A stretch of DNA of 64,000 bases, taken from the NCBI GenBank assembly GCA_000091205.1, contig AP006492.2; one strand, 5' to 3'. This document shows positions 3,620-38,446 of this stretch, piece by piece. Both the position numbers and the translations under genes were made by a program. The notes below the pieces were generated by a model that was not told where the DNA came from, ran no database searches, and saw nothing but the letters and a program-made list of their open reading frames with translations. The stretch's first letter is position 1. Every line of letters begins with the position of its first letter. This DNA comes from Cyanidioschyzon merolae (lineage: Eukaryota).

Positions 3620-5146
3620 ATGCTCCCAGCTAGCGTTGGAGGATCAATCAGCTTGGAAACAGACAACCGTGGCGAGCGCACCGAGCGGGCTGCACGGAGA
3701 AGCTTCCGAGGTCGCCTAGCGTTCCTAGGTCCCAAACTTGGGGCTTGGGGACCCACGCAGAGCTGTTCGGCTGCTCCAAACTGTGCGATATCTGAAGCAC
3801 AGCCACGGAAAGGAGCTGGTCGCGGGACGGCTTACCGGCAGGGGAACTCTCTGCGGAACGTGAGGTTCGTTTTGAACGCGAACCAGGAGACGGGCGCTGT
3901 TGGACCAGCGGAAGCCCCCCATCGACGGCTGTCTAACTGGGGAGGCCTTGGCGGCGCATACGACACAAAAGTCTACCCGGCCAAGAGTTTGTGCTCTCAC
4001 TGCGGCTTGTGTGATACCCGCTACATCACCTATGTGCGCGACAGCTGCGCGTTCCTGAACCAGCACATTGCAGAGCTCGAGCAAAAGGTGCATGGACGCA
4101 GTCGCGCTCTGGATTCCGAAGATGAGCTCTATTTTGGTGTATTCCAGAGCATGCTGGTTGCACGCAAGAAGAAGCCTATTGCTGGCGCCCAGTGGACAGG
4201 CATTGTTTCATCGCTTGCTATTGCAATGCTAGAAAGCGGTCTCGTTGAGGGTGTGGTGTGCGTCCAGAGCAGCAAGGACGATCGTTTCAAGCCCGTGCCG
4301 GTAATTGCACGCAATCGAGCTGAAATCTTAGCGGCTAGGGTGAACAAGCCGACGCTGTCACCAAACCTGTCCGTGCTGGACGCAGTAGAACGAAGCGGTA
4401 TCAAACGTCTGCTTTTCATTGGCGTAGGCTGTCAGGTGGAAGCGCTCCGATCCGTTCAAGATCGAATCGGACTCGAAAAACTTTACGTTTTAGGGACTCC
4501 ATGCGTGGATAATGTGACGCGAGCCGGGCTTCAAAAGTTTCTCGATACGACCTCATCGTCACCGGAGACTGTCGTCTACTATGAGTTCATGCAGGACTTT
4601 CGGGTCCATTTTAAACACGATGATTCCGTGATTGGAGGCCCTGGAAGAAAGTGGGACGAAATCGTACCTTTTTTTGCGCTGAACACACAAGAGTTGAAGG
4701 AAGTTTTCGCTCCATCATGTCTATCTTGTTTTGACTATGTGAATGGTTTAGCGGATCTCGTGGTGGGTTACATGGGGGCACCTTTCGGATGGCAATGGCT
4801 TGTTGCACGGAACGAAACCGGACTGGAGATGCTAGAGCTCGCCCGACAGGTCTGCGGTCTGGAGGAGGGCCCCGTCGACGCATGCGGCGATCGACGCGCT
4901 GCTGTCCAGCAGTCGATCACTGCCTACGATCGAGCGCTTACCCTGCCTCGATGGATCGCTGAGTTTTTGGCCATCATCATCGGTAAGATTGGCCCAAAGG
5001 GTCTGGAGTATGCTCGCTTCTCCATCGACAGCCATTTTACCAGAAATTATCTTTACGTGCGGCGCCGATACCCGGAGAAGCTCGATGCTCATGTTCCCGA
5101 GTACGCGAAGCGTATCGTGTCCCAGTACAAGTTGCCGGATACATGA
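3620..5146 (+). CDS. HCAR: 7-hydroxymethyl chlorophyll a reductase / F-type divinyl reductase family Fe-S flavoprotein (FrhB-like), with a probable ~110-aa N-terminal transit peptide
   Basis: ATG at 3620 confirmed. From CSHCGLCDTRYITYVRDSCAFL onward the protein has HCAR/Slr1923-type motifs (GAQWTGIVSSLAIAMLESGLVEGVVCVQS, LLFIGVGCQVEALRSV, LYVLGTPCVDN, APSCLSCFDYVNGLADLVVGYMG, GPKGLEYARFSIDSHFTRNYLYV), compared from memory with plant HCAR. The N-terminal region is R/S/A-rich and presequence-like. Confidence 0.85.
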   Translation: MLPASVGGSISLETDNRGERTERAARRSFRGRLAFLGPKLGAWGPTQSCSAAPNCAISEAQPRKGAGRGTAYRQGNSLRNVRFVLNANQETGAVGPAEAPHRRLSNWGGLGGAYDTKVYPAKSLCSHCGLCDTRYITYVRDSCAFLNQHIAELEQKVHGRSRALDSEDELYFGVFQSMLVARKKKPIAGAQWTGIVSSLAIAMLESGLVEGVVCVQSSKDDRFKPVPVIARNRAEILAARVNKPTLSPNLSVLDAVERSGIKRLLFIGVGCQVEALRSVQDRIGLEKLYVLGTPCVDNVTRAGLQKFLDTTSSSPETVVYYEFMQDFRVHFKHDDSVIGGPGRKWDEIVPFFALNTQELKEVFAPSCLSCFDYVNGLADLVVGYMGAPFGWQWLVARNETGLEMLELARQVCGLEEGPVDACGDRRAAVQQSITAYDRALTLPRWIAEFLAIIIGKIGPKGLEYARFSIDSHFTRNYLYVRRRYPEKLDAHVPEYAKRIVSQYKLPDT

Positions 5147-5184
5147 AATTGAAGTTCCATGCGGCTTGGAATGAGCTGATTGCG

Positions 5185-17773: not shown

Positions 17774-18476
17774 AGTTTGATTCCAGATTTTGGACACACG
17801 ATGAAACCCCGCTCCTTTTCATCACGACATTACAGTCTGAGGTACAGAGAGCACTCGACAGGGCGTTTACTGTTCACACCATAACATCCACTTGGTTGCT
17901 GCGGGGAATTCCAGCGCTCCGCATGCATCCATCAAGGAATCGCTGGCAACTGGACATTACCCAGGCACCACTGCATACATTTCAAAATTTGCGCACCTTT
18001 TCATGCCGCAGCGCTCAGGATGCTCGGTGCGTCGGTCATCCACACCGCTGTGAACACTCGAATCCGGTATCTTGGTCGAGAAACGAGTCCGCGTTGCCAG
18101 GTATCGCCACGGCGTCTTGGGGCACTTGCGCCGCAGACCGGTGTACACCAGCTGCGCCCTGTGCTCGCGTTATAGCTATGCTTGCGACGGTCTGTTCCAG
18201 TGAATCGCTGTACTGCACTGCCGATGGACTCGTACCGATCACCTTGAACACGAGCAACATCCACAGCAAACTGCAAAAACATCGATCATACAGTGTCGGC
18301 ATAAGCGTGAAACGCGCTGGGATTCCGATGCCTCGCGAAGCTCGGCGCTCACCGTGGGCACTCGGCATCGCGGGCGCTTGTCGCGAGCGCACCCAGGCAC
18401 AGACCCCCGACACAACGTCGCAATCAGGCACGATACCGTGAAAAGCACCTGGCAAACGCGGCGCTCTCGTGTGCTG

Positions 18477-21400
18477 CTAGCATCCGGAATCCATGCCGGC
18501 TGCGAGCCATTGCCGTAACGTGTCCCCGAATACCGCCGGCAAAGCGGCAATCTCCTCTACAATGACATAGAAAGGAAAGGGAAAATCTTCCAGGTAGCGT
18601 CGCACCTGCATGCGTCCACCCGGGGCAAAACCGACCTGCTTCATATCGAGAACAGAGGTACGCCGGACCGCGCTCGACGCCTGCTGCTCTTGTTCTCGAG
18701 TGCCAGCAACCTGATCCAATATGAAAAACACGATCCGCAGACGTTGTGCATTCGCTTCTCGAATGAGCGCGCGGAGGGCGTCTCGCTCTCCTAGTCGCCC
18801 GTCGGAAAGAATCAGCAACAGCTGCCAAGAATCGATCACACCGGCTTGCTGCTCCCGTGCCTCTCGGAACAACGCCGACGCACATTCTAACAGAGCGACC
18901 ACATTGGTCGCCTGCTGCTGGAACGTAAACTGACCAAGCAGCTGATCACCAACAGAGCCAGCGGCGGGTATTCCGGCGTGTAAGGAATGCACGACTTGTG
19001 CATCGCAACCGAAACGGATAACACCCAGATGTGCCAGTTCGAGTCGCTGCAGCGCCGCTGCAACCACCACCAGAGACTCTAGTGCCAAGCGAGACGCACC
19101 TGATTCGTGCATACTCGCAGAGTCGTCGACCGCAACAACGATATCGTATCGACGACGGTCTGGACGAATACGACGCATCCAGATACGATCGCGGGTGTAG
19201 TTGCTGGCCACATAATCAATGAGACGACGCATATGGAGCCGCTTCCCGGTGCGAAAGTCGCCTGCAAAACGCGTCATTTGGTTGTACTCGAGGACGGGTT
19301 CCAGTCGACGGCTGAGGTGTGCAATCGTCGCCTCATGAGAACGTTCAAGTGCGAACCAGGTGATCAAATCAGCATCAGCAGCCGCTTGTTCCAGCGAGTA
19401 TCGCGTATGGTCCGCGTCCATGTGCTGTGGTGCGATATCCTGGTTGTCATCCTTGTCGTTTTCGTCGTCGCGATGATGCAGGGACTCTTGGCGTTGCGTT
19501 GCGCGCTGGCGTTCAGGTTCTGGTGTCTTCGCGGTAGACGTCTGGCGTCCTGGTGACGCTTCCGCTGGTGACAGTGTCGACGACGCGCTCCACTGTGCAT
19601 TGCGATGGCTTGCAGCTGGTACCACCAGGTCGTCGACATTCGAACCGGTCATCTGCTGCACCTGCGGCTGATGCGGCACGCCCGTTGGATCCTGGTTGTC
19701 GCTCCAGAGATCGTCCGTCAACGCAGGCATACGATGTTGTTCATCTGCCGCAGCTGGTTTGTTCTGTTCCAACGAAGTTGATGTTTCCCCAGTGTACGGG
19801 TATGGCAAGTCAAGGGGTGTTGCGGTTGGCGCGGCTCCACTAGACCATTCTGCTGCTACGCTTGACGCAACATGAGCCTGCCGGTCCGGAGCGAGTGACA
19901 CCGCCGCCTCTGCTGCATACGCGGGTGCGCCTTGCGCCGAGGCGCTCCGCTGCTCTTCGGTGCTTTCCCAGGATGCTGGCTGGGGCGGCGTTGTCCAGTG
20001 CATAGCGTCCTGGCTCCAGATCGTCTCCGGCACATTCCTGGCTGCGAGCGGCATCGTTGTCGCAGCATCGACCTCGGTATGAGCCGCTCCGGGCCTCTCC
20101 CTGGGATTTTCCGATACCGCTTGCATGACCGGTGCCTCTGCGGATGCTGGAAGCGTACCTGACGACGCGGCTGCGGCTCCAGTTGCTGCTGCGGATTGCG
20201 ACGGTGCACTTGCAGCGTTTCCAGACTCGCCTCCGGTAGCCAGTTCGGGGAGCGCAGCATTGGCTAGTATCGAGGATTCAGAGACGGGCGAGCGGCCTGT
20301 GTGCTCTCTCGTCTCCGAGGTATCCCGAGCGTCAGACTGAGACCTCTCGGCATCTGCGGGAGACGCGTTCATCGTATCTCCATTGTCGGACAGAGCGTCC
20401 TCGTCTGAATGCAACGCGCTCCTCGCTTCGGCCTCCTCCGAGGCGTCAACAGAGACAGAGTCGACAGCAGGTTCGTCGCATTCCCAGTCTTCAGCGAATG
20501 GCAAGCCTTCAGATGCCTCTGACACCCTATCCGGAGACGAGTTGCCGTCCGGATGCACCAGGTCCTCGAGGATGTCGGGAGCGTCCTGCTCGGGCTCGTT
20601 CAGCGACGCTTCCGGGCTCATGGAGGGTTGCGCAGGCCCCGTGACTGCACACGGTAACCGCGGGGCAGCTTCTGCATCCACGGTGCTCTCGTTGCCAGAT
20701 GCAACCACCTCCGCTGGTGCATCTGTCATCGAGTCGGGTGCCGCTTCCTCCATACTCGTCGCAGCTAGAGCTGTTGCTGAGGTCGCTGTCCTGTCAGCAG
20801 GCAACGCGCGCTCCTCCGGGCAGGGCGTTGGTGCAGTCTCCGTCGCGGGCGGCGCTTCCGTGCCCCCTGGGTTGTTCATGTCACCGTCGACGTCGATGTC
20901 GTCTTCTGGGGCTTGCCCCAGAGTCTCGTTCTCTGTAAACGGTGCCGAGAACGCCGCTGTGGTGAGCAGCTCCTCATTCGATTCGAGGTCATCAGAGGAG
21001 CGCGGCACGCCCTGCTCCGCTGCACTATTCGTCGCTCTGTCGGAGGCGAAGAGCTCCTCACCAAGCTCGGATGCTGCCAGGTCGGCGGAACAGTCACGAG
21101 CATCCGCATTCAATGCTCCGGTGTCAGCAAAGCCCGCTCCCTGGCGCATCACATCCTTACCAACTGCATCGCGCTGTGCATCCACTGCTGCATTGTGAAG
21201 CAGCATCAGCGAACGATCCGCAAGACACAACAAAACCTGAACGATACGCACAAGCGACCAGTGCAGACGCCGCAACATGGCCAGTTTGCGCTCAAGTGCG
21301 CCATGCTGGTGCTCAGAGACATTCGCAGTGCCGTGCACTTGTCCCAGGCACAATACAAACGCTTCGCTTGACGACGGACGCCAGTGCAGGAGCTCCATCA

Positions 21401-24400
21401 GTGTCCAGTCCGGCGTTGCAGTCGGTGTCGCCGTCTGGCACTCTGGAGACGCTCGAGGGCTCGCTTCGGGGTGGCGTTCAGACGCGGGACCCTCGTTATC
21501 CCGACGAGAGTCTTCGGATACTGGAATTGGACCCGCCTCCATTTGGCCATTACCCCGCAGCGATGCAGGCACTCGTCGCTGGAGTTGGAGTCGGAGCCTT
21601 GCAACTTGCTCCAGAGCACATCGGTACAGTTGCGTACGCAATGCCGTTGCCGCAGCACTTGTCGTGCGAGACGTGCCAGACTGAAACGTACGCAGCAGTT
21701 GCTCGAGGTCGGTTGCGCTGCTTTCGATGCCGTCCCAGTCGTGCTGATGGAGCTGACGCCCAAGTTCCGCCGCCAAGGCCGCAAAGCGAGCCCCCAGTGA
21801 CGCAGCGTCTGGCCAACAGCGACACAGTACGGCCAGTTCCAGCGCAACACGGCGAGTATCCATTGTTGAGACAGACGCTTCATCGATTATCGAATATTCG
21901 GCAGCATGACGCTGCGTCTGTGTATCCAGTTCCGTGACTGGAGCACCACGCCCCGGGACCGCTCCCTTCGACAGCACTCGAGTCGCGTCGTGCGCACAAG
22001 TCCAGCTCGCGACCGCCTCCGAGTTCGAAGGCGACGTTTCCGCCGCTGCCGCTGCTGCTGCTGCGCAACGTACGGATGCTTGCGTCTGGACTTGCACAGC
22101 TGGATGAGCATGCGCGATCTGCCAGGTTTCGCGTTGGTCAGCGAGGTCGCTGAGCAGCCCGCGCACCAACGCCAGCAACGTAGCCACGGTGCGCAAGCCT
22201 CGCAGCTCTGCCGGATCCGTAGTAGCCGTCAGCTGCTCCCAGAACTTGGTATCCACCAGCAGCAACATGTCCAGCACATCGAAAAGAGCTGCATGATCGT
22301 CGTCGCCGTCGTCCGTATTGCTCATGTACGGTGTGTTTGGCTGCTGTTGCTGTTGCTGTGGCTGTTGTTGCGTCCGAAGACGCTCCGCTTGTCCCAGGGG
22401 GTATCCCCAGGGCGCCCGCCCGTAATAGAGCACGCCAGCGGGCCAGTGCAACCGCAAAGGCTCTCGCAATGGACGCTTTCGTATCCTCATTGGACGCAGC
22501 AGTTGAAAGATAGAGCGATAACAACGCTCTATAGATGCCCAACAGCACTTGTTCTGGTGCGCTAGGCGCTCCAGTTCCCTCAGTGCAGCCAACGACGCCT
22601 CGTGTACCAGCGATAACTGCTCCAACGCTGGTCCAGCTGCCTTCACGTTGGTGTCCATGAACGATTCTTGCGTCGAGCTGACCAATGCGGTTTGCGAACG
22701 CTCCAAGAGCTGCTTAGCGACGCGTTCACGAGCTCGCTGCCAGAGCGACTGCACACTGCTGTCCAGCAGGTGGTCCAGGGCTCGCCACTGCTGGCGCTCC
22801 TCCTGCTGCAGCTGCTGGACTGCTGCTCGGTAGCGCTCCCAGTCGGCAAGCTGTCGCCACGGTCGCTGCATCTGCATCCCGAAGCGCAGTCGCTGCAGTT
22901 GCCACTGGGGGAGCTGTTTCTGTTGAAGCTCATCAATCGCTTCCTGCACTATCTCGCAGTATCGTACGTAGTAACGGTAGACAAGTACCAGTTGCGCTTG
23001 GATAGCTTGCAAGCGAGGCTCCAGCTGGCTACCGTAGCGCGCAAGCAACCGCCACAGCTGTAGCAACGGAAAGACATATCCCACGGCGAGCGTCTCCATG
23101 CCCTGTCCACAACAGACGAGCCACTGGGGCACACGCTCATCGCCGAGGAGCATCTCTGGGTCTTGTCCAGCGCTCGTACGCTTTCCCATTGCATCCATCA
23201 ACGAGCATCCTGCCCTGGACTGTTCAGAGACTGCGGCGCTCTCGGCGAGCGTCGCAACCTGCAACCAACACGGGAGCGTGTCGATGACCCGCTTCGAATA
23301 GCGCAGAGCACGCTCTTCACGTTGCCAACGAGTCTGGGCGAAACAAGCGAGTCGCATCGAGACTAGCAGCGAGCCGAGCTGCTCCCAAGTGTCGCGCAGC
23401 GCACCATTAGTCGAATCATCTGCATCGGAGAAAGCACAACGCTGGGCAATCTCTTGTGCCAGGGGTTCAAGGAGCTCTCCCAGGAGCAGCTCGAGCGCTT
23501 CCCGCTCCCGGCCAAGGGCTCGCAATTGTTCGCTTCGCTTGGAACAACTATCCCAGCGCGTCGCAAGGTGCATCCAGAGGGCTCGGTCCGGCTCTTGACG
23601 CGCCCAGGCACGCAGCTGGTCACCCAGGCTAGAGAGCGCTGCTCCGTAGCGCCACGTAGGTTCGGCTGCGCTTCCATGCAGCGAGGCACTGGACTCTGCA
23701 ACCGGTCTCTGCCACGCAGTCCATAAATAGGGCAGGGAGTGTGGATGCTGGAGGACGCTCCACCAGGTAGTTGCCGGTTGGATACGCAACAACTGTATGG
23801 ATGCCACCACGTAACTCCGCAGAAGCGCTTCATAGCTGTGCTTTTGCAGTGCTGCGAGCACTTGAGCAGGGAGCTCTTGCGTACAACTCAAAGCTTCCAT
23901 TCCGATGAGCAGCAGCGCGAGAGCTACGACCACACCAGAGCACCACTGAGTCGTTTTCGTATCCACAGAGGAAGTACCAGGGGCAGCAGTGTTGACCAAT
24001 TGAGCCAACAGCCCGGGCAGCGATTGCCAACAGGTGCTCCCTGGCGGTACTGCTGGGTGCTCGCTCGAGTTCCAGCGTCGACCGCAGCCACCATCCGTAG
24101 CTATCTGACCAGAAGCAATCGCATTGCGCTCCGAGAGTGCTGCATTCCGTACAAAAGCAGTACTGCATGCTATCTGTCCAGCAGCAAGGACGTCGATCTC
24201 CGAGAGCACTGCATTCGGGACAGAAGCAGCACCAGTGGGTATCGCTAAAGGGACAGGTAGTGCGTCCGCCCTGCGCTCCAAGTCCTTAATCACGCTCACA
24301 TACGAATCCGAAGGCGCTACTGCTGCTGCTGCTCGCTGCGAATCTCGTGTCCCGTGAGTTGCCTCCAGAGACAGCAAACTGTATTGGTGCCAAAGACGCA

Positions 24401-27400
24401 ACGCTTCCCATTGTGGGGTTTCGTCGGGATCCAGGTCCATTCGAGCACATGCAGTGCCGGTTGATGCGGTGCGCTCTGGCGAGCCTTGCCGCAGTGGCTC
24501 TAGTTCGGACTCGAAGAGGCGCCTACAGTGTGCAAGCGCCTCATCGGAAGCTTCCGCGGCTGCAACAGCACCTGCTCGACTCCACGGCATTCCAGCTGCT
24601 GCAGCAAGCGTTCGCCAAGCCTCTTGTGCGGACGTTTCCGGAGCCGCTCCATTGGGAATCGATGCAGACGCCTGGGCGCGTCGTTCATCGAGACCAGGAA
24701 CACCTCCGGCAAGCACCACATCCAACAAGACTGCCCAGGCATGCCAGAAACGGGTTTGTGCGCTTTCCTGTCTACAAAGCAGTTGCTGCAACGAAACTAG
24801 CAGCCGTCGAGGTGCTCGAGCAAGGCGCACTGGTGCCAACAGGCCGCCTCTCGCTCCAAGTGATGGCTCAGGCTCGCGCTCAGACGCAAACACCGACTCG
24901 AGAAGCAACAACATCCGCGGCCTCCAGAGCGTCGACCAGTCCAGTGCGTCGGTGGTGCACATCCCAGCGACACTCTTTTCGGCATCGAGAAGCAGCCTCT
25001 CATGGTATTCCTGGTACCAGTCAAGCACGACAAGTCCGGCGGTATCATGCAGGGCGTGAAAACGTCCACCTGGCAGCAGTGCTTCCGCTGCTTGCAGTCC
25101 CTCCAAAGCCCCCAGGCGTTCCGCTGCACTCCAGACGTGTGTCCAGCCTGCAGCGGATTCTCGAGGAAGCATTCGGAGCAGCGGTTCCTGCTGCTCCCTC
25201 CAAGCATGACCGTACGCGAGTGCCGCTTCCAACGTCGGTACCGATGGGCGATAAAACCTACGCGCTCTAGCCTCGGCGCGTAGAGCCGCAAGCTGTGCTT
25301 CCGACAGGTCCACACGACGAAGGAGACTTCGATCTGCGGACCCAGGCAGCGTACAGCTGTAGCCGTTAAAGGCCTGCTCCACAATGCGATCATCACGCTG
25401 ACGCAGGGCCTCCATCCACGGGAGCAGCTCCTCATCCAGATAGCCATATACCTCGGCAGGATCGACCACTGCAGGCAACGACGGCATGCGACTCGCGGAC
25501 TGCTCGGTTTCCGAACGACCGTGCTCTTCGATGCCAAGCACCGGTGCAGCAGTCGGATGTTGAAAGCGACTCGCTGACTGCCCGGTTTCCGAACGACCGT
25601 GCTCTTCGATGCCAAGCACCGGTGCAGCAGTCGGATGTTCAAAGCGACTCGCGGACTGCTCGGTTTCCGAACGATCGTGCTCTTCGATGCAAAGCACCGG
25701 TGCAGCAGTCGGATGTTCAAAGCGAGGAATGCGCCACCAGAGCACCGCATGTCTCTGGGGTACAGTTCCAGGAGCCGTCGTACCTCCAGTGGTCGCAGGC
25801 GCGTTCCGAGAGCGACCTGCGGGCCCCGGTGCGCCCCGTTGAGCGTCCAGCGTCGGCACTAGACCTCGTTCCCAGAGTGCTTCCCAGAGATAGGCATCGA
25901 GCGCGTCGGCGGGCGTGCTAGTGCTGGGCTTGATATGCTGGGCGTCATTATAGGCCCCAAAGTCGTACTGCCGCTGCAACAAGGCATCGGCGAGGCAATG
26001 AAACGCGCATGAACCCGACATGAGTGACTCCCAGTGGTGCGGTAAACCGCAGCAGGTGCGCTGCGGGTCGAAATAACGCTCCTTGGCCTGTTCGCTTGAC
26101 TGCATGGCGTGCAACGTCTCCGAGGCCTCGCTGTCGTCCAGCAGGTGCAGCGCCCAGCACACGAGATGCCAAGACAGCGCTACCTGACGAAGCGCACACC
26201 GCACAAACCAGTCGTTTTCTCGTTCGGGAGCGCCCAGCGCAAGCGCTACCCGCATGGTGGCAACCACGACCACGAGAGGCCATGAAAAGCGCACTAGCCA
26301 GTTGTTCAGCTGCATCCAACGGCGTTGCAAGGCTCCGCGTTCCTGGGTGTTCGCGAAAGCAGCCTCGTGGCTAAGAAGCCTCTCGCTTGCACACAGCAGA
26401 CCCGCTAGATCCATCAGCACAAACCAGGCAAGCCATCGTGGCGTGGAACGCGGAAGCAACGCACTCACTGCGCGCTGTGCGGGTTGCTCAGCAAGCCAAC
26501 GAGTGCGAACGCTAGCATCCGTCGTAAAAGCAGCAACAGCAGCAGCAGCAGCAGCAGCAGCAACAGCATTGGCTGGTGTGCTCTTCTCGACTGCTGCGCT
26601 TTCGCCGGGGTCATCGAGCTCCGCATACGCCCCGTCCTGTTGGACCAAGGTATTCGATGTGAATGATTCACGTGCCGGATCACCGGGGGGCATCGTGAGG
26701 CGACAACATGCCTTGGCGGCGGCAGTCAACCAGTCCACAGAGGCCGCATATGCCGCCTCCCTGCCCTGGTTGTAGAAACGTTGCAAGAGACTGGATGCAT
26801 TCGACGTGTACGCATTCGGCAGGGCGCGTTGCCACCAGCACCAGCGCTCACCGCTCGACGAGCATACCTGGAAGCATGCAGCGTCAAGTTCAAGTGCGCT
26901 GCGTATTCTTTTCCAAGCTGGCTGAAACACAGCAACATACCCACGGGTGCTTGATCCAACTGGATGCATTATTGATGCTCGCCAGCGTGCATCGTTTCCA
27001 CTCTCCTGAAAGCGTTTTCGGGACAGGCTCTCGAGAGCATCCAGTCGAATGGCCGTAATCTGCTTCCTGAACGGGCCCTGTATCGTTGACGTCGACCAGG
27101 GAATCTGCCATGGCCAAAAACAACGCCAGTAAAGGAGCAACCACACGAGCACTTGCTGCTGCTGCATTGCAAAAGTCGATTCTGTGCCTGTATCGGGTAT
27201 GGGATGCAGCTGCAGCGTATCCAGTAGAGGTTCACCGCTCAATGACGCGGATCCGGTACGCCCAGGACTGGACGCTCCATCTCTGGGCAGTCGTGCAACC
27301 GGGGCAAGCGAACGAGATGCTCTGCGAAACGTCTCTGCGGAGAACGGCATCAATGGATACGATTCTGGTCCTAGACCGATGAGCGCGAGACGCAAACCCA

Positions 27401-30400
27401 AGTCCAGTGGCGAACTCATCATCAGGAAGAGGCCAGCAGCTTCCGCGTGCTGTCGCAGAGCCTGGATGACGCGGGTGCGGCACAGGTGCACCTGACGGCT
27501 CGCCCAAAAAGCCAGAACGTTCGCTTCGGTAGCGCGTGAAGGAGCGCTGCCCCAGATAGAGGCGTTTGTTGCATCCTCGTGACTCACCGCGGCTGGTGCA
27601 GACCGCTCACCTCCGACGCTGATGGCAACTGGCAACGTCGAGTTTTGCTCGCACCAGCTAGCGGCAGCTGTATCGAACAAGTCCAGCACCCGTGCCAATC
27701 GATCCAGATCGTATTCAATTACCGGACGTAATGGATCATAGAACAAGGAGATCGATGTTCGAGTGATACCGCTCCAAAGCGCTTCGGCAGGTACTTCGCT
27801 TGCCGCTGCAAAACACCGAGCATCCATGGGCTTTGTCGCAGACGCTGCTAGAGCATTCCCTCGTCCAGTAACGTCGCCACAAGGCAATGCTTGCCCCTGG
27901 AAAGCTGACGCTTGCGCGTGTGCTGCCTCGACGGGCTGCTCGGAAGCAGCGCTGCCGCCTACCCACAGCGTCAAACAACGGCTCATGAGCGCCTCGGAGA
28001 GAGCCGGGCTCTGACGTGCAGCACACCCTGCAGCAGCTTCCGAACAAGTTGCCGTCAGAAAAATACGACACCTGGGATGGATGACAAAGCGTCGGATGCC
28101 GGTGTCGCTGGGGTCATCGTGTTGGGATAACATTGGTGGCGCTTCGGGTACCGGGAGCTCGAAAACATCCTCCTCAAGCAGCGGATTCAAACGATCCAGT
28201 AGAGCCGGTGACAACGCCTCCACGTGCCGCAGTAAGAGCCAGTGTCCTTGTTCAAGGGCAGTCAGCAGGCGCGACGGACGCCAAACGAAGTACTCAGGGT
28301 CTTGTCTTGCGGACGATGAAGACGAACGTGCTCTACTGGAGTTGTGCAGCGACGACGAGGCGCATATCGTTTCCCTAGTCCGCTGCTCTGAAGCGTGGCT
28401 GTAACCCCCGAACAGATCCGTAATATCGGTTTGGTTGCTGAGCACCACCTCTGTGAGCGGCATCGCCAGGATTTGCGCCATACCCTGAACAAGGCTGGCT
28501 TTGCCGCAGCTCGCTGGACCAACCAGCAAGCAGGGCCATCGCTGGGTAACCGCTACGGCTAAGGCTGTCCAGTGGGGTGCCTGACAGGGCCTCCATTCCG
28601 GCACGCTCTCAATGGCGAGACTGGGTCCCAGCAGACCGTGTGCACTGGGACCCTGCACCTCGCGTCCCGCTACGAGAACTGGACCCCAGCAAAAGCACCA
28701 CTTCAAGTTGCGGGATGCGTCTGGTGTTTGGATCGTATCCCCGATGTACAAGTCAGAGGCGCTTGGCAGCTGTTTCGATTCGTGTGCGGATACTGTGCCC
28801 AGGGGAACCGCATCACCCGAGTTTTCCGCCAGAGCGTCCCCCGAGACTGCTACAGGAACGTTGTTCCCAGTCTGGAACTGGGGTGCTATCTCAGAGGATT
28901 GCTCTGCCTCCATGGAATGCGGGGTCCGTGAAGAATCGTCTCGAGTTAGCGACTGAGACAGTGGACCTGCGTGCATCGCTGTTGCCCTGTCTGCGCGGTG
29001 CTCGCTAGTGTTGTTGCGACAGAAAAGTGCACAAGGATCCATTTGGAGCCACTTTCGGAAAAGCTGCTCCCGGAACGCAGAAACATACCGAGGCTGCCAG
29101 CAACTGCACGTCACGAGCGATGCAGTGCCGCCCACAACCGGGTCTACGATACCGCAAAGGTGATCCTCCTCAGTGGATGCTGCATCCATCCGGAGCACAA
29201 CTTGCGGCAACGGGGTCCGAAACGACCACCAGGAACCATCTGGTGCTGGCGGATATTTCTCAAAAGTGACTCGTTTGCGCCCGGGTGTCGGTATAACTTG
29301 GTTTCCTGCATTTGACTCGCCGTTGTGTGCATCCAAGCGCTGCGTAACGAAAACTCGTGATAGAGAAAGCGAACCTTTTGGATGCTTTTCCGTGACCGTC
29401 TGTGAAAGGTATCCTTTCCGGTGCGCATGATCACTATCATCGTTATCCTTGTTCTTATCGTCATCATCGTCGTCGTCGTCGTCAGCAGCGGCAGCAGCAG
29501 CAGCACCGGATTTAGTTGCATGCTCATGGACTGCCGCCAATACACGAGATGCTTTCCCGGGTGCTTCCGCATCTCCAGGGCTTGACCCCTGCACAGTATC
29601 CTTCCCAAATACCGGATGCACGGCAACATCCACTTTGCGCCCTGTATGCGCAACAGCTAGAGTCTCGGGGACTGAAACCGCTCGTTGGGCAACCTCCAGC
29701 GGCATCGGCAGAAGCAGCTGAGCCCAGCTGCGCAGCGGCACACTGGGGTACGCATTCCAGAGCGTTGCCAGACGCAGCACATCCCGCATCGTGGCTGGTT
29801 GTGCATGAACCAGGCTCAACTTTTGAGGCCACCAGTGCGTCAGCTGTTGCAACACGTCAGGAAACTGCTCCAATGATGGAAATCGTAGCCTCAGAACCGC
29901 TTCATAGTCTGCAGCATCATAGTCGTCGCAGGGAATCCGCCAAAAGCGGTTCAGAAAACTGCGTGGGAGCGAACGCCGCCCCAGCGTCGTTCCCGCAGGA
30001 TTCTGTGTTGCGAAGAAACGAAAACCCTCGGATGCTGGAAGCGAAAGTGCAAGCTCCGGAACATGGAGCATTCGGCGATGATCCAACACTGCATTGAGAC
30101 CTTCGAGAACCGACTGACTCGCCAGGTTCAGTTCATCAACGAGAATCCAGTCGCCTCGCTCCATTGCCGTATACAGTGGACCTCTCCGGAAGCAGAACCC
30201 GCTGCCGTGGGGAACAAAGGTCCCCACCAGGTCCATCATTTCGGTGAACTCGCTGAGATTCACCCGGTGCACCTTTTTGGAGAGCGTTTCAGCAAGCGCC
30301 AAAACAAGTTGGGTCTTCCCGACCCCTGGCGGGCCCTCCAGCAGAACAGGTCGCTGATCCACAGCACGAACTCGCTCCAAGCGTCGCAGGTTGCGTTGCA

Positions 30401-31759
30401 CTGTGGGAGCAGTCCAGCACCAGGAAGGGCGCCCGGTCGACTCGACCGGTTGGCGCTGGTGCTGCAGTACTTGTCGCTCATGTTGCAGTTGCACACCATG
30501 TATCGCAACTGCATGTTCGTCTTGAAAAAGGCTCTGCAACTCGTTCCGAAGCGAGAGTCGAGACACTGGCGACAAACTCCAGGCACTCTCCCAGAAGGCT
30601 TCGAGGGCCTCGTAGAGGGCCGCAACCACAGCACCTCGATGTTGCTGTTGCTGTTGCTGTTGCTGTTGCGCTCGATAGATACGAATACAGGCCACGAGGT
30701 CCCGAATGCTCATAGCAGGCTGCTGGAGCATACGCTGACGCTGGAGAAGCCATTCGAGGGCGCGCTTCCAGAGTTCCAGCACCAGCGGTGGTTCGCTTGC
30801 CAACAGCTCCGCAGCCACCGGGAAGAGATCATCGCAGGAGCCCTCATAGGGTATCCATATCTCGGTAAAGCGATTCCGTATGGCAGCGGAGAGTTCCTTC
30901 TTGCCAAAGTCACCGCTGGGGTTCATACAAGCGAAGACGCCAAAGCCCGGAGCTGCCTGCACCTCTGGAAGGGGTTCACCTCCGTGTTCACTGAGCACCA
31001 GTTTGCCTGCGGGTTCTAGCACACTGTTCAGACGCTCCACCACAGCGTCGTCGATCATGTTGATTTCATCAATCAGGAGGAACGCACCTTGTCTCATCGC
31101 CGAGGTGAGTGCTCCATCTTGCCACTTGAAACGAGGTTTTCTCGTGCTCGTAACCACTTTGGATGCCGTTGTAGCGCAACTCTGCGGCACGGCAGTCGAT
31201 GGAGGATCGTTCAGGGCCTCTGTGCTCACTACGGGAACGTAACGACCTACGAGGTCCGCAGCTTCCGTATGACGATGACCATTCAGGGTATAGAGTGGCC
31301 GATTCAGGGCAGCAGCTAATACGGCACAGACCGTGCTTTTGCCGATACCGGTCTCACCAATTAGAAGTACCGGTTCTTGGTTAAGAATGGCGTGTAAAGC
31401 GAGTCCTAGTACGCGTTGCAGACTCGGAACCATGACGAGTCCCAATGCCTCCACCGCAGTTGCCTCAATGCGTTGCCACAGGAGTGTCCCCAACGGCACC
31501 GAGCCCGATCGATGCAACGCGTTGCCAGTTTGGTGATGTCGCTGCTGTTGCTGCTGCTGCGTCTGATAGACTTGATCTGCGCTTGCTTGGGGCTGCTGTT
31601 GCGGCATTTCTGCCTCATGGTCTTGATCTGCGCCTGTACTGTCGAATAGATTCAACCAGGGACACTGGTCGCGCTCAGGTAGCGAATCCAGCAGTTCCCG
31701 GAGCGTCAACGGTGGAAGCACATCCACCATCGCCATGATGGTATGCTCCCTAGTCACCG

Positions 31760-31801
<42 letters not shown>

Positions 31802-34800
31802 GCTCGCTTGTCGACGCTTGCACGCCACTGGACGTCCTCGCGTCATTTCGTGGTGACTCCTCCACGACACCCAGACCTATGTGTTGACAGAGTACTCTCC
31901 AGACAGCGTTACGTTCCGCGGGTTCGCGCAGGCGCTCCACCAGCAAACAACGACCGTGGAAACGTAGCGCTTGCCGATCACGTGCTCGCCGGTTGGCCCA
32001 GCGGAAGAGGTCCCGCGCGGTTACCAGGCCTTCTGTGCCGGCAAAAATGCGTTCCGTACAGCGTCGCAGTTGCAAGTCTCGCAGAATACGAACCATGGCG
32101 CTCGCAAAGCTAGCCGGTACCTCGTAACAGATACCGAGGATCTCTAGGAGCTCCTCATCTTGCATCTCGGGCAGATGAATGAGAACAAAACGAGAGCGAA
32201 ATGCCGGAGAGAGCATTTTGCGTCCACCATAGCGGCTACCACTGGGATTCTGGGTAGCAAACAGAGCAAACTGCGAATGCGCTTGTACCACTTGACCAGT
32301 TTCCGGAATGACGAGTTCACGATTTTCGTCCAAGAGTCGGTTGATGGACTCGAGAACGTCACCGGGAGCCAGGTTGAGCTCATCGAGAAGCACCCAGTGT
32401 CCGTGACGAGCAGCGCGCACCAAAGGACCCTCGACAAACCGTAGACACCCATCAGGTCCTACCAAATACCGACCCAGGTATTCGCTCACATCCGTGTGCT
32501 CGTGTTGATTGAGTCGAATAAGTTCGTGACCGGTACGCTCGGCCAGGTGCTTGACCAAGGCGGTCTTACCGACCGCAGTTGCACCCTCGATGAGCACTGG
32601 CGTCTTCTGGAGTCCATCGACCAGTGCCCGGGCGATATCTGACAGCGCTTTCACCATCGTTCGTGTACAGACGAACGTCGGGCTGCAACCTCGGGTACTG
32701 GCAGTGCTCAACGTCGCCGAGACACCTTTGGTGAGCAGCTGCTTGCAAGCAGCACCTGACGCAGCGGTAACGGAGTGTTCTCCCGGTACGCGGATCTCTC
32801 GTCGAGACTCGCTGGCGGGTACCTGAGCCTCACCATTCGTAGCTTGACTGGAGGCAGGCGAGGCACCTGGCTGTACCAGGGTGAGCCACTGGCCTCCGAC
32901 ATCGACCACTGGACGCTTTCGTGGTATCGCCGGTAACAGTTTCGTCACTGGCGTGAGCAGATGACGCTCGGGTGTTGCCAAGTCAGCAGCCAGGAGCTCG
33001 TACGCGAGATGCAGCACACGTTGGCGGCTTGTCTCCGCGAGAAAAGTGCTGAAACCAAGACAAGCGCCTTCGTAGAGAGCCCTGCGAGCATCTAAACCGC
33101 ACTGAGTGAGGTGCAGCGCCAGTCGCAGCATCCGACTGAGCGTTCGCAGCGGAAAACGGGGAGCAGTCCCGTCACCAGCGCTGGACAAACTCGAACGAGC
33201 CAGTCCGCGCACTCGTTGATAAAAAAGCACTACACGCTTCGTCAAAGAATGTTCGGTATCGACCCGAGCTTGACTCGGATGCAGACGCTTCGTAAAGAGG
33301 TGCTCCACCAGGCGATGCAGGTCCTCGTCTGGAAGCTCATCGTTCAACCGAATAGTCGTGAAACGTCTCTGGAGGCTCGCGGGTAACGCTTTCCGGCCAA
33401 TGTTGGTCTCCGGGTTCATACAGGCTACGAGTCGGAAAGCTGGATGTCGGTTGATGCTACTACTAGCCGACAACACAGCGACTTGGTTGCGGTGCCTGGG
33501 CGGCAACGATGCCGTTGGCGAGTGTGCTGTGCTTTCCCATATCGAGTCGAGTACGCCAGTAAGGCGTTCCAGACAAGCCGCCGGAGCTAAGTTCAGTTCG
33601 TCGAGGAGCAACAGGTCGCCACGACGAAGCGCTAGCGCCAACAAGCCTTCTCGAAAAGCGAAGCGCAAAGGCGGCTCTGCCTCCGCTGTTGGTGTCTCGC
33701 GGACGAGCACGTCGCTCTCGTCATCGTCCATTTCGTTGTCCAGGGCGGTAGCAACAGCGTCAGAACAATCGCTTCGGCTCTGCAAGTGCTGTCGTTTGTC
33801 CAGCCAGCGTACTTTGCGAGCACCAGATGTATCAATAGAACCGGAAGCCGGCTCGCTCGTGGACGTCACAAGAGTGCGGTGTCGCTTTCGCAACCGTGAG
33901 CGCTTTTCCAACGCTGTGGACCCGTAGGCATCCTCCATTTGCGAAACGAGTCGCTGTACCTGATCCCAGTGCGCCCGCTGCTGGTGACCTTCGAGGCGGC
34001 CACTGCTCGCCACTCTGGTAAAGAGGCTGCGGGCGAGTCGAACTAGGCGACTCGCGTCACGACGACGGGCCATTAGACGAAGCTGCAGGATCAAGTCCTG
34101 GTTACGATGCGTGGAGAAGGTTGTGCTGAATGCAACCTCCAGCTCATACGCCAAGTCTTGCAGGAGTTTGCGCGTATCGATCGGTTGATAGCCACCAAAC
34201 AGTTCCGTGAGGTCGCTCTGCTGCGACATATTGAGCACGACGAGTCGTCGTCCCAGACTTTTCGCCAGCTCCTGTACCATAAACGTTTTCCCGACACCTG
34301 TTTCGCCAATCAAGAGGACTGGCTCATCGTGATCGAGTGCTCTGTAGAGTTGACCTAGCGCCGTGCAGCTGGTCTCGGTGGGCGCTACGGCCATGCGTTC
34401 CAGCAGTTGCGGCAGAGGTGACTGCTTCCACGCTAGCGACCACCATATGCGTGCCTCATGGGCAGAGAGACTCCACTGGCTAGCCAGTGCTGTGAGCAGA
34501 GCATCCTCCACGTGCTTGTCTTCGGCAGCAGCCGGCGGCAACAGCGGTGCCAGAACATCCAGCGCATGGATGAGCGCAACCTCAGGAGTCAACGGTTCGG
34601 TGAGCGCCTCTTGGGTGCGCGCTAAACGAGTAGCCAAACGAACTGCTTCGTTCAGTCCCGGAAGCGGGAGATTGTCGGCGAGTTTCCGACAGCACGCCGC
34701 GGTGCAGTCTACGCTAGCGAGGACGCGATCGATCCACGGGGTGCAAGTTGGGAATCGTTCCCCGAGCAGTTGGTGACGCTCCGCTCTCGCATACGGTGGC

Positions 34801-36398
34801 AAGTCGATAACGAGCCAGCCGATCCACGAGGAAGACGTCTCGTCCGTGGTAGTAAGCGATGCTGATGTTCCAGTGCGAATCGCGAACAGCCGAAAGTCCT
34901 GATGCAATTGCAAGGCGAAATTTCGCCCTGGAAGTTCGAATACTGCACCAGGGCGTATCGAAGCGAGCTGCTGCACAACACTCGTGGCAAGGCGTCGGTT
35001 GGTAGCGCTCGAGCTGCCGAGGCCCTCGAGGACAAGCCAGTGTCCCTGGGCCAGGGCTTCACCCACAGGACCCAGTCGCCACTGGAAACGACCAGGGCCG
35101 CAGGGCGCAATGACTGCGATTGCATCCAGAAAAGCGTCTTCCTCGAAACCCAGCCGATCCCAGTAGAAGGCGGTGATGGGGCGCTTCAGCTCCTTCGCCA
35201 GAAAGTGCAGCAGAGCACGCTTGCCGGTTGCAGGCTCGCCTTGGAGTAGCACCGGGGCGCCATACACCACAGCAAGGTGTAGCAGATTGAGCGCTCGGTG
35301 ACGACTTGGGACGACGATGTAGCGCTGGTGACGCTGGAGCGCCCGCGAGTCGAGTACCGGATCCGCAGTATCTGTATCTGAGCTCGGGTGGCTCTCGTTG
35401 CGTCCCGTTGACGCCCCGTCTGGCCAGCAGGGTACTGGTCGAGAGCACTGGGCACTCATTCGGGTCCGTGCGTTCAGTAATGCAGACTGGGCACCGCCTC
35501 CATGGCAGGTAATGCCATTCACGGGAGGTATTGCGTGCTGCCCAGCGTTCAAGAGCGTCGCCGCAGCCTCGGGTCTCGAGCTGCCTTCACTCGCTGGGCC
35601 TGGGCACGGTGCACCCACAGGCCAGCGGGCTGCAGTTGTCGCTTGGGGTCCATCATGACGAGACAATCTCGTACCAGCCACTAATTCTCGCCAAGTTGCG
35701 AGCAGCGCATGCCGTGCTGCCTCTATATAATCGATTTCGTGCCAGAACATGGCAAGCACCGCATCATGCTGTCGTCCGTGTACGGGGCAGTGTGTACCAG
35801 CGGGACGGAAGCGAGCTGTGCAGCTGCTGCGAACGCCAAACGTCAAGCTCAGTGCCAAACAAGCCATTGTCGATCGAGCGTCCGGTGCGTTCTCGTGCCA
35901 GTCGGCAAAGCAGGGTCTGAGATCTACGCTTCGCTGAAGAACTGCCTGGCCACCGGCACTGTAGGCTAGCAACGCGACTTGCCGACTCGTGGCTCGCCAG
36001 CCTCTCGGTAAGAGAGCAGTGAGTGTTGCCACACCGCCGGTTACGGCGACGAGCCGCACAGCGGCACCGCTGTGCCCACAACTCGTGAGGTACGCAACAA
36101 GCTGCGGAAGGTCTCGGGGATCAAGTGCCCCCAGCAGGCTGTACACTCGATCAAACAGCGCTTCATCCAGAGCACTCACATTCGGACGGCGTTGGAGCTC
36201 GACGCTCTCCGCGTAGGCAGGCGCTGGGTACGAGTACGCCGCCGTTGCCCCCCGCAGGTCGACACTCGTTGCCGTAGCAGCCGCGGAGGGTGTCTCCGGC
36301 ACCACGTACGACTCCCAGAACGCCTGATCATCGAGTTGCTCCAGTGCGATCAGATCGTTGAGTGTTGCTGGAGACAACAGACCTACACCGCTCTCCAT
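18477..36398 (-). CDS. MDN1: Midasin (MDN1/Rea1), giant AAA+ ATPase of 60S ribosome biogenesis, ~5973 aa in a single uninterrupted exon
   Basis: The ORF top (36500) is a GTG; the first ATG is at 36398 (minus). Six consecutive AAA P-loops are present: LLQGEPATGKRAL (~35220-35250), LLIGETGVGKTF (~34285-34320), LIEGATAVGKTAL (~32565-32600), LLIGETGIGKST (~31331-31370), LLEGPPGVGKTQ (~30311-30350), LLVGPASCGKAS (~28493-28535). Then come a long helical linker, an acidic D/E/S-rich region (~20000-21100) and a C-terminal VWA/MIDAS domain with a DxSxS motif, VVAVDDSASM (~19105-19150). This architecture is diagnostic of midasin. Confidence 0.9.
25491..25724 (-). repeat. In-frame tandem repeat, 3 x 78 bp (26-aa unit RFEHPTAAPVLGIEEHGRSETEQSAS) inside the midasin CDS
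   Basis: Three adjacent near-identical 78-nt copies, with 2-4 mismatches between copies, are seen directly at 25491-25568, 25569-25646 and 25647-25724. Confidence 0.9.
26530..26567 (-). repeat. (GCA)n microsatellite, poly-Ala in midasin
   Basis: cagcaacagcagcagcagcagcagcagcagcaacagca; the protein reads AVAAAAAAAAVAA. Confidence 0.8.
29455..29516 (-). repeat. (GTC/ATC)n followed by (GCA)n trinucleotide tract encoding poly-Ala then poly-Asp (DDDDDDDDD) between the AAA5 and AAA6 P-loops of midasin
   Basis: The trinucleotide run is seen directly in sequence; the protein reads AAAAAADDDDDDDDDKNKDNDDSD. Confidence 0.85.
30641..30669 (-). repeat. (TTGCTG)n hexanucleotide repeat encoding poly-Gln (9 Q) in midasin
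   Basis: gttgctgttgctgttgctgttgctgttgc; the protein reads YRAQQQQQQQQQHR. Confidence 0.85.
31761..31800 (-). repeat. (AGC)13 microsatellite encoding a poly-Ala run (13 A) in midasin
   Basis: A perfect trinucleotide run on the + strand; on the minus coding strand the codon is GCT = Ala (protein ...EHAAAAAAAAAAAAASV...). Confidence 0.9.
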
Positions 36399-36672
36399 GG
36401 ATACCTGGAGCTCTCGAGTCACCTCAGAGAGAGCGCGCTCAAGTCGGAGGCAGCTACCCAGTGCGTACGAAGGGTTGCGTCGGCGTCCGCGTTGCGCCAC
36501 CGCAGCGTCGTGACGACGACGGCGGCCTAAGGACTACCTCGACCCGCATGCCCAGAGCGAAGAGGTTTACCTGTTGAGTGTTTCCGGGGCTGGAGCAAAC
36601 ACCACAGGTCGATCAACTTTTGGCTTGGTCGCTGTTTAGCTTCGTGCTTGCGTGATTATAAAGGCTTCATCT

Positions 36673-36696
36673 TTGGCTTTGGCTTTGGCTTTGGCT
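36673..36696. repeat. (TTTGGC)4 hexanucleotide repeat in the divergent midasin / purD intergenic region
   Basis: ctttggctttggctttggctttggcta, seen directly. Confidence 0.85.
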
Positions 36697-36892
36697 ACGA
36701 ACTTATGCGCGCCGCTGGACAGGTTCATAGGAAACAGGTGCTTAGAAACTGAAAGTTTCCTCGTTGACTGTTTCATTAGCTTAGCATCGTAGAGCGCTTA
36801 ACTTTCATCACCACATCAGGGTATCATTGAAACCCGAGGCGAAACGTTTACAAGCGGTCAGCGTTTTTATACCGTTCCGTACTGCTTTCTTG

Positions 36893-38446
36893 ATGCAACT
36901 GGTCTCCGGGCAGGAACGGTGCTGTTCGATTCGCGCCTGGGGCACAGCGTGCATATCAAGCCAGCCCCGCTTCGGCAGTGGGTTGCAGCGGCTTGCATTC
37001 CTGACACAAGTCGCTGTGCAGCGATTCTCTGGGGAACGGCGAACGTTCAGCAGGCACTCTTGGAGACGAAAAAGCCGCAGTGCCTTGGCGAGCAATGTCC
37101 GCTGCTCCCTGAAAGTTCTCGTTATTGGTAGTGGCGGTCGTGAACATGCACTCTGCGATAAAATAGCAGAGTCACCGCACTTGAAGTCGCTGTATGCAGC
37201 ACCTGGCAACCCGGGTATGGAGCGCGTTGCTCACTGCGTGTCCGACTTGGACGCTGCAGATATTTCCGCAATTTGCGGCTTCGTACAGGAGAAATCGATT
37301 GATTTAGTCGTGATCGGGCCCGAAGCACCGCTTGTTTCGGGCCTGGTGGACGCTTTGGGTGCCCTCAAGGTTCGCGCATTCGGACCGAGCCAGGCGGCTG
37401 CTCGTCTCGAGGGCAGTAAAGCGTTCTCTAAAGCTTTCATGAAGCGTCACGGCATTCCGACGGCTGATTATGATCGCTGTGGATCTTTGGAAGAGGCCAC
37501 GACAGTGCTAGGCCGCCGCGAACGCTTTCCAGTGGTCATCAAGGCCGACGGCCTCGCCGCAGGCAAGGGTGTGTTTATCGCATCGAACAGAGGAGAGGCG
37601 GAGGACGCCCTCCGTGTGCTCTTTGTCGAGCAGAGACTGGGTGAGGCAGGCCGCACGGTGGTAATAGAAGATTACCTGATCGGGGAAGAGGCGAGTTTCT
37701 TTGCGCTGGTGAACGGAGAGCAAGTCGTGCCGCTTTTGCCTGCACAAGACCACAAAGCAGCCTACGATGGCGACCGAGGTCCGAACACCGGAGGTATGGG
37801 GGCCTATGCCCCAGCACCCGTCGTGACGCCGCAACTCGCGGAGCGTATTCTCGCGCAGGTCGTGCGACCCACGGCCGCTGGAATGGTGGCTGAAGGCACC
37901 CCCTACCGCGGGCTGCTCTACTGCGGTCTCATGATTGAGTCAGGGGATGCGTTTAGGGTCCTCGAATACAACGTTCGCTTCGGTGATCCGGAATGCCAGG
38001 TGCTCTGCATGCTATTGGAGTCGGATCTGTTGCCTGTCCTGTTCGAAACGGCGTCGTTTACGAGCAGCGAGTTGCCTGCTCAGTCCCTGCAATGGGCTGC
38101 AGACGCTGCCGCGCTCACTGTGGTCCTTGCATCGCCCGGGTACCCGGGCCCGTATCGAAGCGGTGACGTCATCCGCGGTCTCGAAGAGGCCGAAACGCTG
38201 CCCGGGGTCAAGATCTTTCATGCGGGTACTAGCCGCGATGCTCGCGGTCAGCTCGTGGCGAAAGGGGGTCGTGTCCTCAATGTCACAGCCCATGCTGCGA
38301 CCTTGCGTGAAGCACAGCAGCGAGCCTACGAGGCGATTGCGAGAATCGATTGGCCGGATGCATTTTATCGCCGGGATATTGGCTGGCGAGCGCTGGAACG
38401 AGAGCAAAGACAAAAACCTCCTCCAAACGTGTCGAGCGCTCGGTGA
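36893..38446 (+). CDS. purD: Phosphoribosylamine-glycine ligase (GAR synthetase, PurD), with a ~60-aa N-terminal presequence
   Basis: The ORF top at 36827 is a TTG; the first ATG is at 36893. PurD motifs are present: LKVLVIGSGGREHAL, APGNPGM, VVIGPEAPLV, PVVIKADGLAAGKGV, the ATP-grasp region (EDYLIGEEASFFAL, GPNTGGMGAYAPAP) and a C-terminal domain (KIFHAGT...LVAKGGRVLNV). The N-terminal extension is R/S-rich. Confidence 0.85.
   Translation: MQLVSGQERCCSIRAWGTACISSQPRFGSGLQRLAFLTQVAVQRFSGERRTFSRHSWRRKSRSALASNVRCSLKVLVIGSGGREHALCDKIAESPHLKSLYAAPGNPGMERVAHCVSDLDAADISAICGFVQEKSIDLVVIGPEAPLVSGLVDALGALKVRAFGPSQAAARLEGSKAFSKAFMKRHGIPTADYDRCGSLEEATTVLGRRERFPVVIKADGLAAGKGVFIASNRGEAEDALRVLFVEQRLGEAGRTVVIEDYLIGEEASFFALVNGEQVVPLLPAQDHKAAYDGDRGPNTGGMGAYAPAPVVTPQLAERILAQVVRPTAAGMVAEGTPYRGLLYCGLMIESGDAFRVLEYNVRFGDPECQVLCMLLESDLLPVLFETASFTSSELPAQSLQWAADAAALTVVLASPGYPGPYRSGDVIRGLEEAETLPGVKIFHAGTSRDARGQLVAKGGRVLNVTAHAATLREAQQRAYEAIARIDWPDAFYRRDIGWRALEREQRQKPPPNVSSAR

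Follow-up and report, generated by a model that had tools for sequence, protein, structure and literature searches.

The window, a 64,000-nucleotide stretch of Cyanidioschyzon merolae 10D DNA (contig AP006492.2 of assembly GCA_000091205.1), carries on its minus strand an open reading frame (ORF) that is very probably the single-copy nuclear midasin (Rea1/Mdn1/MDN1) gene of this organism on chromosome 10, present as one uninterrupted 17.9-kb coding exon. In the ORF listing of the window, the frame, including an upstream GTG, spans 18477..36500 (6007 codons). The first ATG in it is located at 36396-36398 and the stop codon at 18477-18479, giving a product of 5973 aa. The original prediction had placed a midasin of ~5970 aa at 18477-36398 with no strand given; these limits proved to be exact, and the strand is minus. 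At 59% GC, ~3.3% of random codons are stops; by our own arithmetic, ~6000 open codons would occur with a chance of ~1e-89, and a chance origin of so long an open frame is therefore impossible. Other ORFs of 300-320 aa, found within the midasin ORF on the plus strand and in alternative frames, are taken as by-products of the high GC-content. Midasin is universal in eukaryotes and C. merolae is nearly intron-free, both being textbook facts. The gene is an ordinary one that is already in the reference annotation, and the finding is already known. The features of the locus are collected in Table 1.

Table 1. Features of the midasin gene and annotated neighbours in the window
Feature	Protein position (aa)	Window position	Strand	Remarks
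Midasin coding sequence, complete		18477..36398	minus	5973 codons and stop, single open frame
N-terminal domain	1-356	35331..36398	minus	conserved in Cyanidiales
AAA+ ring	357-2790	28029..35330	minus	six tandem AAA_5 modules with midasin lids; Pfam, PDB and profile matches
AAA1 Walker A GEPATGKR	387	35217..35240	minus	degenerate, Arg for Ser/Thr; no Walker B DE follows
AAA2 Walker A GETGVGKT	698	34284..34307	minus	Walker B LLLLDE at aa 929, ~230 aa downstream
AAA3 Walker A GATAVGKT	1272	32562..32585	minus	Walker B VLLDE at aa 1335
AAA4 Walker A GETGIGKS	1681	31335..31358	minus	Walker B LLIDE at aa 1773
AAA5 Walker A GPPGVGKT	2022	30312..30335	minus	Walker B ILVDE at aa 2084
AAA5-AAA6 expansion	2232-2589	28632..29705	minus	lineage-specific; includes polyAla/polyAsp run at aa 2293-2324
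AAA6 Walker A GPASCGKA	2627	28497..28520	minus	degenerate; LLLRH at the Walker B position
Linker	2791-5200	20799..28028	minus	~2400 aa between AAA6 and tether; very diverged
Tandem repeat	3559-3636	25491..25724	minus	3 x 78 bp (26 aa, RFEHPTAAPVLGIEEHGRSETEQSAS), in frame, within the linker
Tether	5201-5690	19329..20798	minus	490 aa; linker-MIDAS interval, place of the yeast D/E-rich region
MIDAS (VWA-like) domain	5691-5973	18480..19328	minus	midasin-type
IGPS				BAM80218, exact protein match
CMJ082C				BAM80219, exact protein match
GARS				BAM80221, exact protein match
CMJ085C				BAM80222, exact protein match
Hydroxybutyrate dehydrogenase				BAM80223, exact protein match
Beta-amylase				BAM80224, exact protein match
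Rho GTPase				BAM80228, exact protein match

The predicted product has the architecture of a midasin. Pfam finds AAA_5 in six stretches (E 2e-106) together with two midasin-specific lids, PF17865 at aa 1026-1136 (68.1 bits) and PF17867 at aa 1416-1509 (49.6 bits), the cut-off being 22.7 bits for both. The best PDB matches obtained with phmmer are the Rea1/Mdn1 chains of S. cerevisiae and S. pombe (E 4e-232 to 5e-230), and the next family is NorQ at E 1e-18. A midasin profile hidden Markov model (HMM) was built from 16 fungal, vertebrate, apicomplexan and other sequences, a comparison of the kind suggested together with the original prediction. Its positions 253-2216 match aa 357-2784, and a further match follows at aa 5268-5967, in the expected order. 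All six of the anticipated AAA P-loops are present, and a canonical GK[ST] occurs together with a Walker B hhhhDE motif in AAA2-AAA5 only. All catalytic motifs of Rea1 are likewise located in AAA2-AAA5 (PMC11603028). In AAA2, Walker A is widely separated from Walker B, at the place of the yeast AAA2 H2 insert (residues 692-813; PMC6286127). The absence of Ser/Thr from AAA1 (GKR) and AAA6 (GKA) is common to both cyanidialean lineages (aa 371 and 2362 in the Cyanidiococcus-type metagenome sequence P0123), while the fungal and vertebrate midasins with six P-loops listed have GK[ST] at 6/6 sites.

The C-terminal part is that of a midasin as well. The DxSxS tail claimed for the ORF is found as DDSAS at aa 5758-5762 (window 19113-19127), and the downstream MIDAS residues Thr (QQATNV) and Asp (LSDG) are kept and align with those of yeast. 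The C-terminal 280 aa match the Chaetomium Rea1-MIDAS structure 6qt8_A at E 9e-61 (phmmer) and S. pombe Mdn1 at E 2.5e-51; Pfam VWA scores 21 bits over the domain, which is under the Pfam cut-off. Over the tether and MIDAS together, the 16-sequence profile gives E 2.5e-98. The tether is a low-complexity, net acidic segment composed of 18% D+E, 5% K+R and 50% A/S/T/P/G.

S. cerevisiae Rea1/Mdn1 (4910 aa; PDB 5jcs, 6hyp, 6i26, 6i27 and 6ylf) and S. pombe Mdn1 (6or5) feature the order of parts assigned to the C. merolae protein, namely an N-terminal domain, six AAA+ modules, a long linker, a flexible tether and a C-terminal MIDAS. The likeness to the yeast proteins includes the MIDAS (E ~1e-47 to 1e-51), the restriction of complete motifs to AAA2-AAA5 and the long AAA2 gap. 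In comparison with yeast Rea1, the C. merolae protein is ~1060 aa longer. Its linker, of ~2400 vs. ~1700 aa, is not alignable by HMM, the AAA5-AAA6 interval holds ~300 additional residues, and GKR in AAA1 and GKA in AAA6 stand in place of GK[ST].

The closest comparison is provided by the Cyanidiococcus-type midasin (locus L001 of GCA_013995675.1 and the metagenome sequences P0123, 5337 aa, and P0126, 5365 aa). It is syntenic, located between the GARS and IGPS neighbours, and is colinear with the C. merolae protein over 5113 positions at 45% identity; the metagenome versions are single ORFs. The N-terminal domain is ~46-48% identical to that of P0123. The degenerate AAA1 and AAA6 P-loops are shared, as is the weakly acidic, A/S/T/P/G-rich tether (19% D+E). 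The Cyanidiococcus type is 640-800 aa shorter. In the C. merolae protein, 860 additional residues are distributed over many insertions 12-95 aa long, most of them with ordinary sequence complexity, and the Cyanidiococcus type has 224 of its own. In the Cyanidiococcus yangmingshanensis assembly GCA_013995675.1 (VWRR01000003.1, L001 5239-20830), frameshifts divide the midasin gene into four or more ORFs; two of these frameshifts lie inside the MIDAS and compensate each other. The NCBI model, with 2820 aa, represents a fragment. Since the adjoining GARS gene is split too, and since the frameshifts in the MIDAS are compensating, this NCBI assembly probably contains frameshift errors in midasin.

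Hot-spring metagenome contigs that are ~99.3% identical at the DNA level carry the same syntenic gene as single calls of 5999, 6001 and 6003 residues, and the gene rebuilt from the 112,790-bp contig of JGI 3300005573 has 6003 open codons. All indels among the relatives of C. merolae are multiples of three. They are situated in codon-repeat runs at aa ~978, 1533 (polyAla), 1910 (polyGln), 2309 (polyAla/polyAsp), 4022, 4678 (polyGln) and 4784 (polyAla). The 18-kb frame thus stays open in natural populations while the lengths of the codon repeats vary. The ratio of non-synonymous to synonymous polymorphism (pN/pS), computed from 127 variants, is 0.43 overall, 0.32 in the ring, 0.17 in the MIDAS and 0.74 in the linker. 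The tether value of 1.14 comes from nine variants only (two synonymous and seven non-synonymous), and the value of 0.08 for aa 2268-2589, within the AAA5-AAA6 expansion, is also based on small numbers (eight synonymous and two non-synonymous). The reading frame is maintained by selection.

Tri- and hexanucleotide codon repeats encoding polyAla, polyGln and polyAsp were noted in the window at 31761-31800, 30640-30669, 29457-29509, 26529-26568 and 22342-22367. In natural populations of C. merolae, most of these sites show in-frame length polymorphism; the run at 26529-26568 showed no length variants. The GC-content is 0.57-0.62 over the midasin gene (window 18001-38000) vs. 0.52-0.55 in most of the remaining window. 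The midasin protein is Ala-rich, which would favour GC-rich codons.

The C. merolae genome has long been known to contain almost no introns, and one open frame of 17.9 kb is therefore expected. RNA-seq of the whole genome gave 39 introns in 38 genes (bioRxiv 10.64898/2026.05.17.725761), earlier counts being 26-27, which agrees with the intron-poor eukaryote proposed in the original prediction. In Cyanidiales, GUAAGU at the 5′ splice site and ACUAACC at the branch site show almost no variation, ~15% of cyanidialean introns have no in-frame stop, and twelve introns were overlooked in the original annotation (bioRxiv 10.64898/2026.05.17.725761). The last two figures, together with several C. merolae-specific segments that have no counterpart in the Cyanidiococcus-type orthologue, could be explained by one or more short, stop-free, in-frame introns hidden in the ORF, in which case the mature protein would be shorter than 5973 aa and some of the insertions would be retained introns. 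This is very improbable. GTAAGT and ACTAACC are both absent from the two strands of 18477-36398, all population indels, including those of the inserted segments, are multiples of three, and the largest insertion is the segment with a pN/pS of 0.08. In the whole window, ACTAACC occurs once, on the antisense strand of a helicase gene, with no GTAAGT upstream on the same strand. By every sequence test available, midasin appears as one uninterrupted coding exon whose mRNA is probably unspliced, as had been proposed on the basis of the open frame. The relatives' ORFs are open as well.

Several results weigh against the identification of the complete ORF as midasin. The N-terminal 356 aa are not matched by the first 252 positions of the 16-sequence HMM, and the linker is not matched by this HMM either. 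A phmmer search of the PDB with the linker matched nothing between AAA6 and the MIDAS, and a two-sequence linker profile run with full HMMER against 1.84 billion representatives gave three matches, all cyanidialean. AlphaFold2 models of two linker segments, made from two-sequence alignments, are mostly helical and unusable, with pLDDT values of 33.7 and 28.0. The acidity of the tether is well below that of characterised midasins (18% D+E vs. 43% in a yeast-type midasin). The exact 5973-aa string was not found by look-up in the protein collection. Finally, two metagenome loci (L005 and L006; JGI 3300005861 and ENA ERZ27249350) have TGA in place of TGG at Trp2190 (window 29829-29831).

The acidity of the tether bears on the D/E-rich segment that had been described in the ORF. 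Such a segment exists at the colinear position, but its strong acidity was overstated. The maximum D+E fraction in a 50-aa window is 0.34 in the C. merolae tether vs. 0.52-0.62 in fungal midasins, and the residues in 50-aa windows with at least 30% D+E number 179 in the whole protein, 611-710 in four fungal midasins and 330 in the Babesia one.

The linker is the most diverged part of the protein. A regular expression search for the linker motifs conserved in fungi or animals (WRxLELxxW, SWKDxN, FYxDPN, WPEH and KGFC) found none in the C. merolae protein. When aa 2400-5250 were used to query 5.8 billion proteins in a word-indexed search, the linker was covered by Cyanidiococcus only; the remaining matches, spanning 4-9% of the query, presumably correspond to the AAA6 module at its start. 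An hhalign comparison of a three-sequence cyanidialean profile with a 16-sequence linker profile produced a colinear alignment of aa 2947-5086 with positions 66-1780 of 1806. The score was 48 and P 6e-4, the reversed-query control reached P 0.5 at best, and the hhalign probability was only 28%, a further point on the negative side. Nine higher-confidence colinear blocks at aa 4255-4760 face the best conserved stretch of the family linker. Conservation of the Rea1 linker has been reported to be low across the family (PMC11603028). The predicted colinearity with MDN1 past the AAA ring is thus firm for the tether and MIDAS, and the profile-profile alignment lends it weak support in the linker.

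The absence of detected homologues outside Cyanidiales for the middle 2400 aa would also be expected if the ORF comprised two or more adjacent in-frame genes, for instance, a MoxR-like AAA gene and a VWA gene, or if it were a gene fusion with no relation to true midasin. In bacteria, MoxR/NorQ AAA proteins and their VWA partners usually have separate genes, and the JGI label of a metagenome homologue is 'MoxR-like ATPase'. The AAA modules of C. merolae do match NorQ and CbbQ of the bacterial MoxR family (NorQ/NorD, CbbQ, CobS) at E 1e-15 to 1e-18, and that family shares the coupling of an AAA motor to a MIDAS. There, however, single-module hexamers act with separate VWA partners, whereas the C. 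merolae polypeptide unites six modules, a linker and a MIDAS, which is the hallmark of midasin. The six modules with their midasin lids are far closer to Rea1 than to NorQ in the PDB search, the MIDAS is of the midasin type by its match to 6qt8, and the order of domains is that of all midasins, with the weak colinear signal in the linker. The gene is a single ORF in five independent assemblies from two genera, and the annotated genome has one gene slot only at this position. Separate genes or an unrelated fusion are scarcely credible in the face of this evidence, and a true midasin is preferred.

A similarly slight probability is attached to a gene in decay, that is, a pseudogene or a gene under relaxed constraint. 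The high pN/pS values of the linker and tether, the degenerate P-loops of AAA1 and AAA6 and the TGA at Trp2190 would fit decay. Because of the TGA, the gene is called as separate products of ~2200 aa and >1100 aa. The TGA may reflect a genuine nonsense allele, or stem from a shared read set or an assembly error, and TGG is kept in eight other relatives. The 18-kb frame is nevertheless open in all other relatives and in the sister genus at 45% identity, the indels are all in frame, and the ring and MIDAS, with their catalytic motifs kept, are under purifying selection. Midasin is essential in yeast, and low conservation of the linker is normal for the family (PMC11603028); the variant counts behind the tether value are tiny. 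An intact midasin gene accounts better for these data.

The protein is longer than yeast Mdn1, as predicted, but the low-complexity insertions put forward as the cause explain a minor part of the difference. SEG-like low-complexity residues number 650 (10.9%) in C. merolae vs. 233-485 in four fungal midasins and 145 in a Babesia one. The difference of ~165-420 among ~1000-1060 extra residues means that low complexity covers at most about one third of the excess. The distances between successive P-loops from AAA1 to AAA6 are 311, 574, 409, 341 and 605 aa, those of fungi and a vertebrate being ~300-345, 407-440, 281-306, 321-388 and 299-315 aa. The ring is ~460 aa longer than the family profile, and ~300 of these residues lie between AAA5 and AAA6, where the P-loop spacing of the Cyanidiococcus type is 423 aa. 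The N-terminal region is ~100 aa longer. Linkers are 1543-1813 aa long in fungi. In vertebrate midasins (partial or near-complete fish and other sequences; P0064, P0068 and P0070), 2250-2350 aa separate the end of AAA6 from the acidic region, and therefore a linker of ~2400 aa is not unusual outside fungi. The vertebrate tethers are strongly acidic, unlike that of C. merolae, and no direct sequence match of vertebrate midasins to the C. merolae linker was found. Human MDN1 has ~5600 aa, and vertebrate midasin genes are split by many introns. Judged from these comparisons, the extra length consists mostly of scattered, non-repetitive, in-frame insertions and a vertebrate-sized linker, low complexity alone being insufficient. 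The lineage-specific in-frame insertions behind the excess over yeast comprise unique segments and homopolymer runs of codons, and one or more of them arose by recent tandem duplication.

The 78-bp tandem repeat of the linker is not present in the Cyanidiococcus-type orthologues compared. Among the metagenome loci, three copies occur in L016 and L018 and one in L017. The single copy of L017 was rejected as a firm polymorphism: the contig is chimeric, joined within an (AGC)13 run near window 26565, and because short-read assemblers collapse tandem repeats, the copy number may reflect assembly collapse. The Cyanidiococcus-type midasin has tandem repeats of its own. In P0123, about four tandem copies of GDQRPGTSATQQSI.VATME lie in the AAA2 insert (aa ~839-930), and a 27-aa unit is present in two copies in the linker (aa ~2960-3010). 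Tandem duplications in frame have thus arisen repeatedly in this family of genes.

By homology with Rea1, the ring of six AAA+ modules would hydrolyse ATP at AAA2-AAA5, and the long helical linker would be remodelled. The flexible tether would carry the MIDAS, which may bind the ubiquitin-like domains of the Ytm1/WDR12 and Rsa4/NLE1 orthologues, so that the pre-60S assembly factors bound to it would be pulled off the nascent large ribosomal subunit. Both the biochemical mechanism and the substrates are inferred here from work on yeast. It is possible, though unlikely, that cyanidialean midasins constitute a mechanistic variant, with a weakly acidic A/S/T/P/G tether in place of a poly-acidic one, AAA1 and AAA6 without the Mg-coordinating Ser/Thr and, in C. 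merolae, ~300 constrained residues added between the AAA5 and AAA6 modules. If this were so, and should the D/E region of yeast serve a particular function (autoinhibition or charge-based docking, for example), that function would be dispensable or met differently in Cyanidiales. As a natural case in which the linker is highly diverged and the tether hardly acidic, this midasin could help to identify the essential features of Rea1. The importance of the gene itself is slight, the genome being that of a fully sequenced and annotated model.

The remaining genes of the window had also been described as uninterrupted. Seven other ORFs, read from the first ATG, are identical to annotated C. merolae 10D proteins, each as one ORF (Table 1), in accordance with that description. 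Exactly one number is free between CMJ082C and GARS in each of the BAM, XP and EukProt series, and therefore the reference annotation has one protein-coding gene where the midasin ORF lies. From these accession gaps, we infer that the ORF is CMJ083C/BAM80220; the locus-tag prefix CMJ presumably denotes chromosome 10 of C. merolae. A literature search found no mention of CMJ083C.

A scan of the whole 64-kb window detected neither tRNA genes nor any Rfam family exceeding its gathering score. Two further ORFs have no Pfam match and are probably spurious. One, of 172 aa, is located at window 17923-18441 on the plus strand, directly 3′ of the midasin stop codon, and its sequence is not in the protein collection; the other, of 460 aa, at window 58108-59490 on the minus strand, is antisense to the CitMHS transporter gene. 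The genes of the window suit a photosynthetic eukaryote, as they include an FrhB/FdhB-like reductase, a beta-amylase, and IGPS and GARS with N-terminal extensions.

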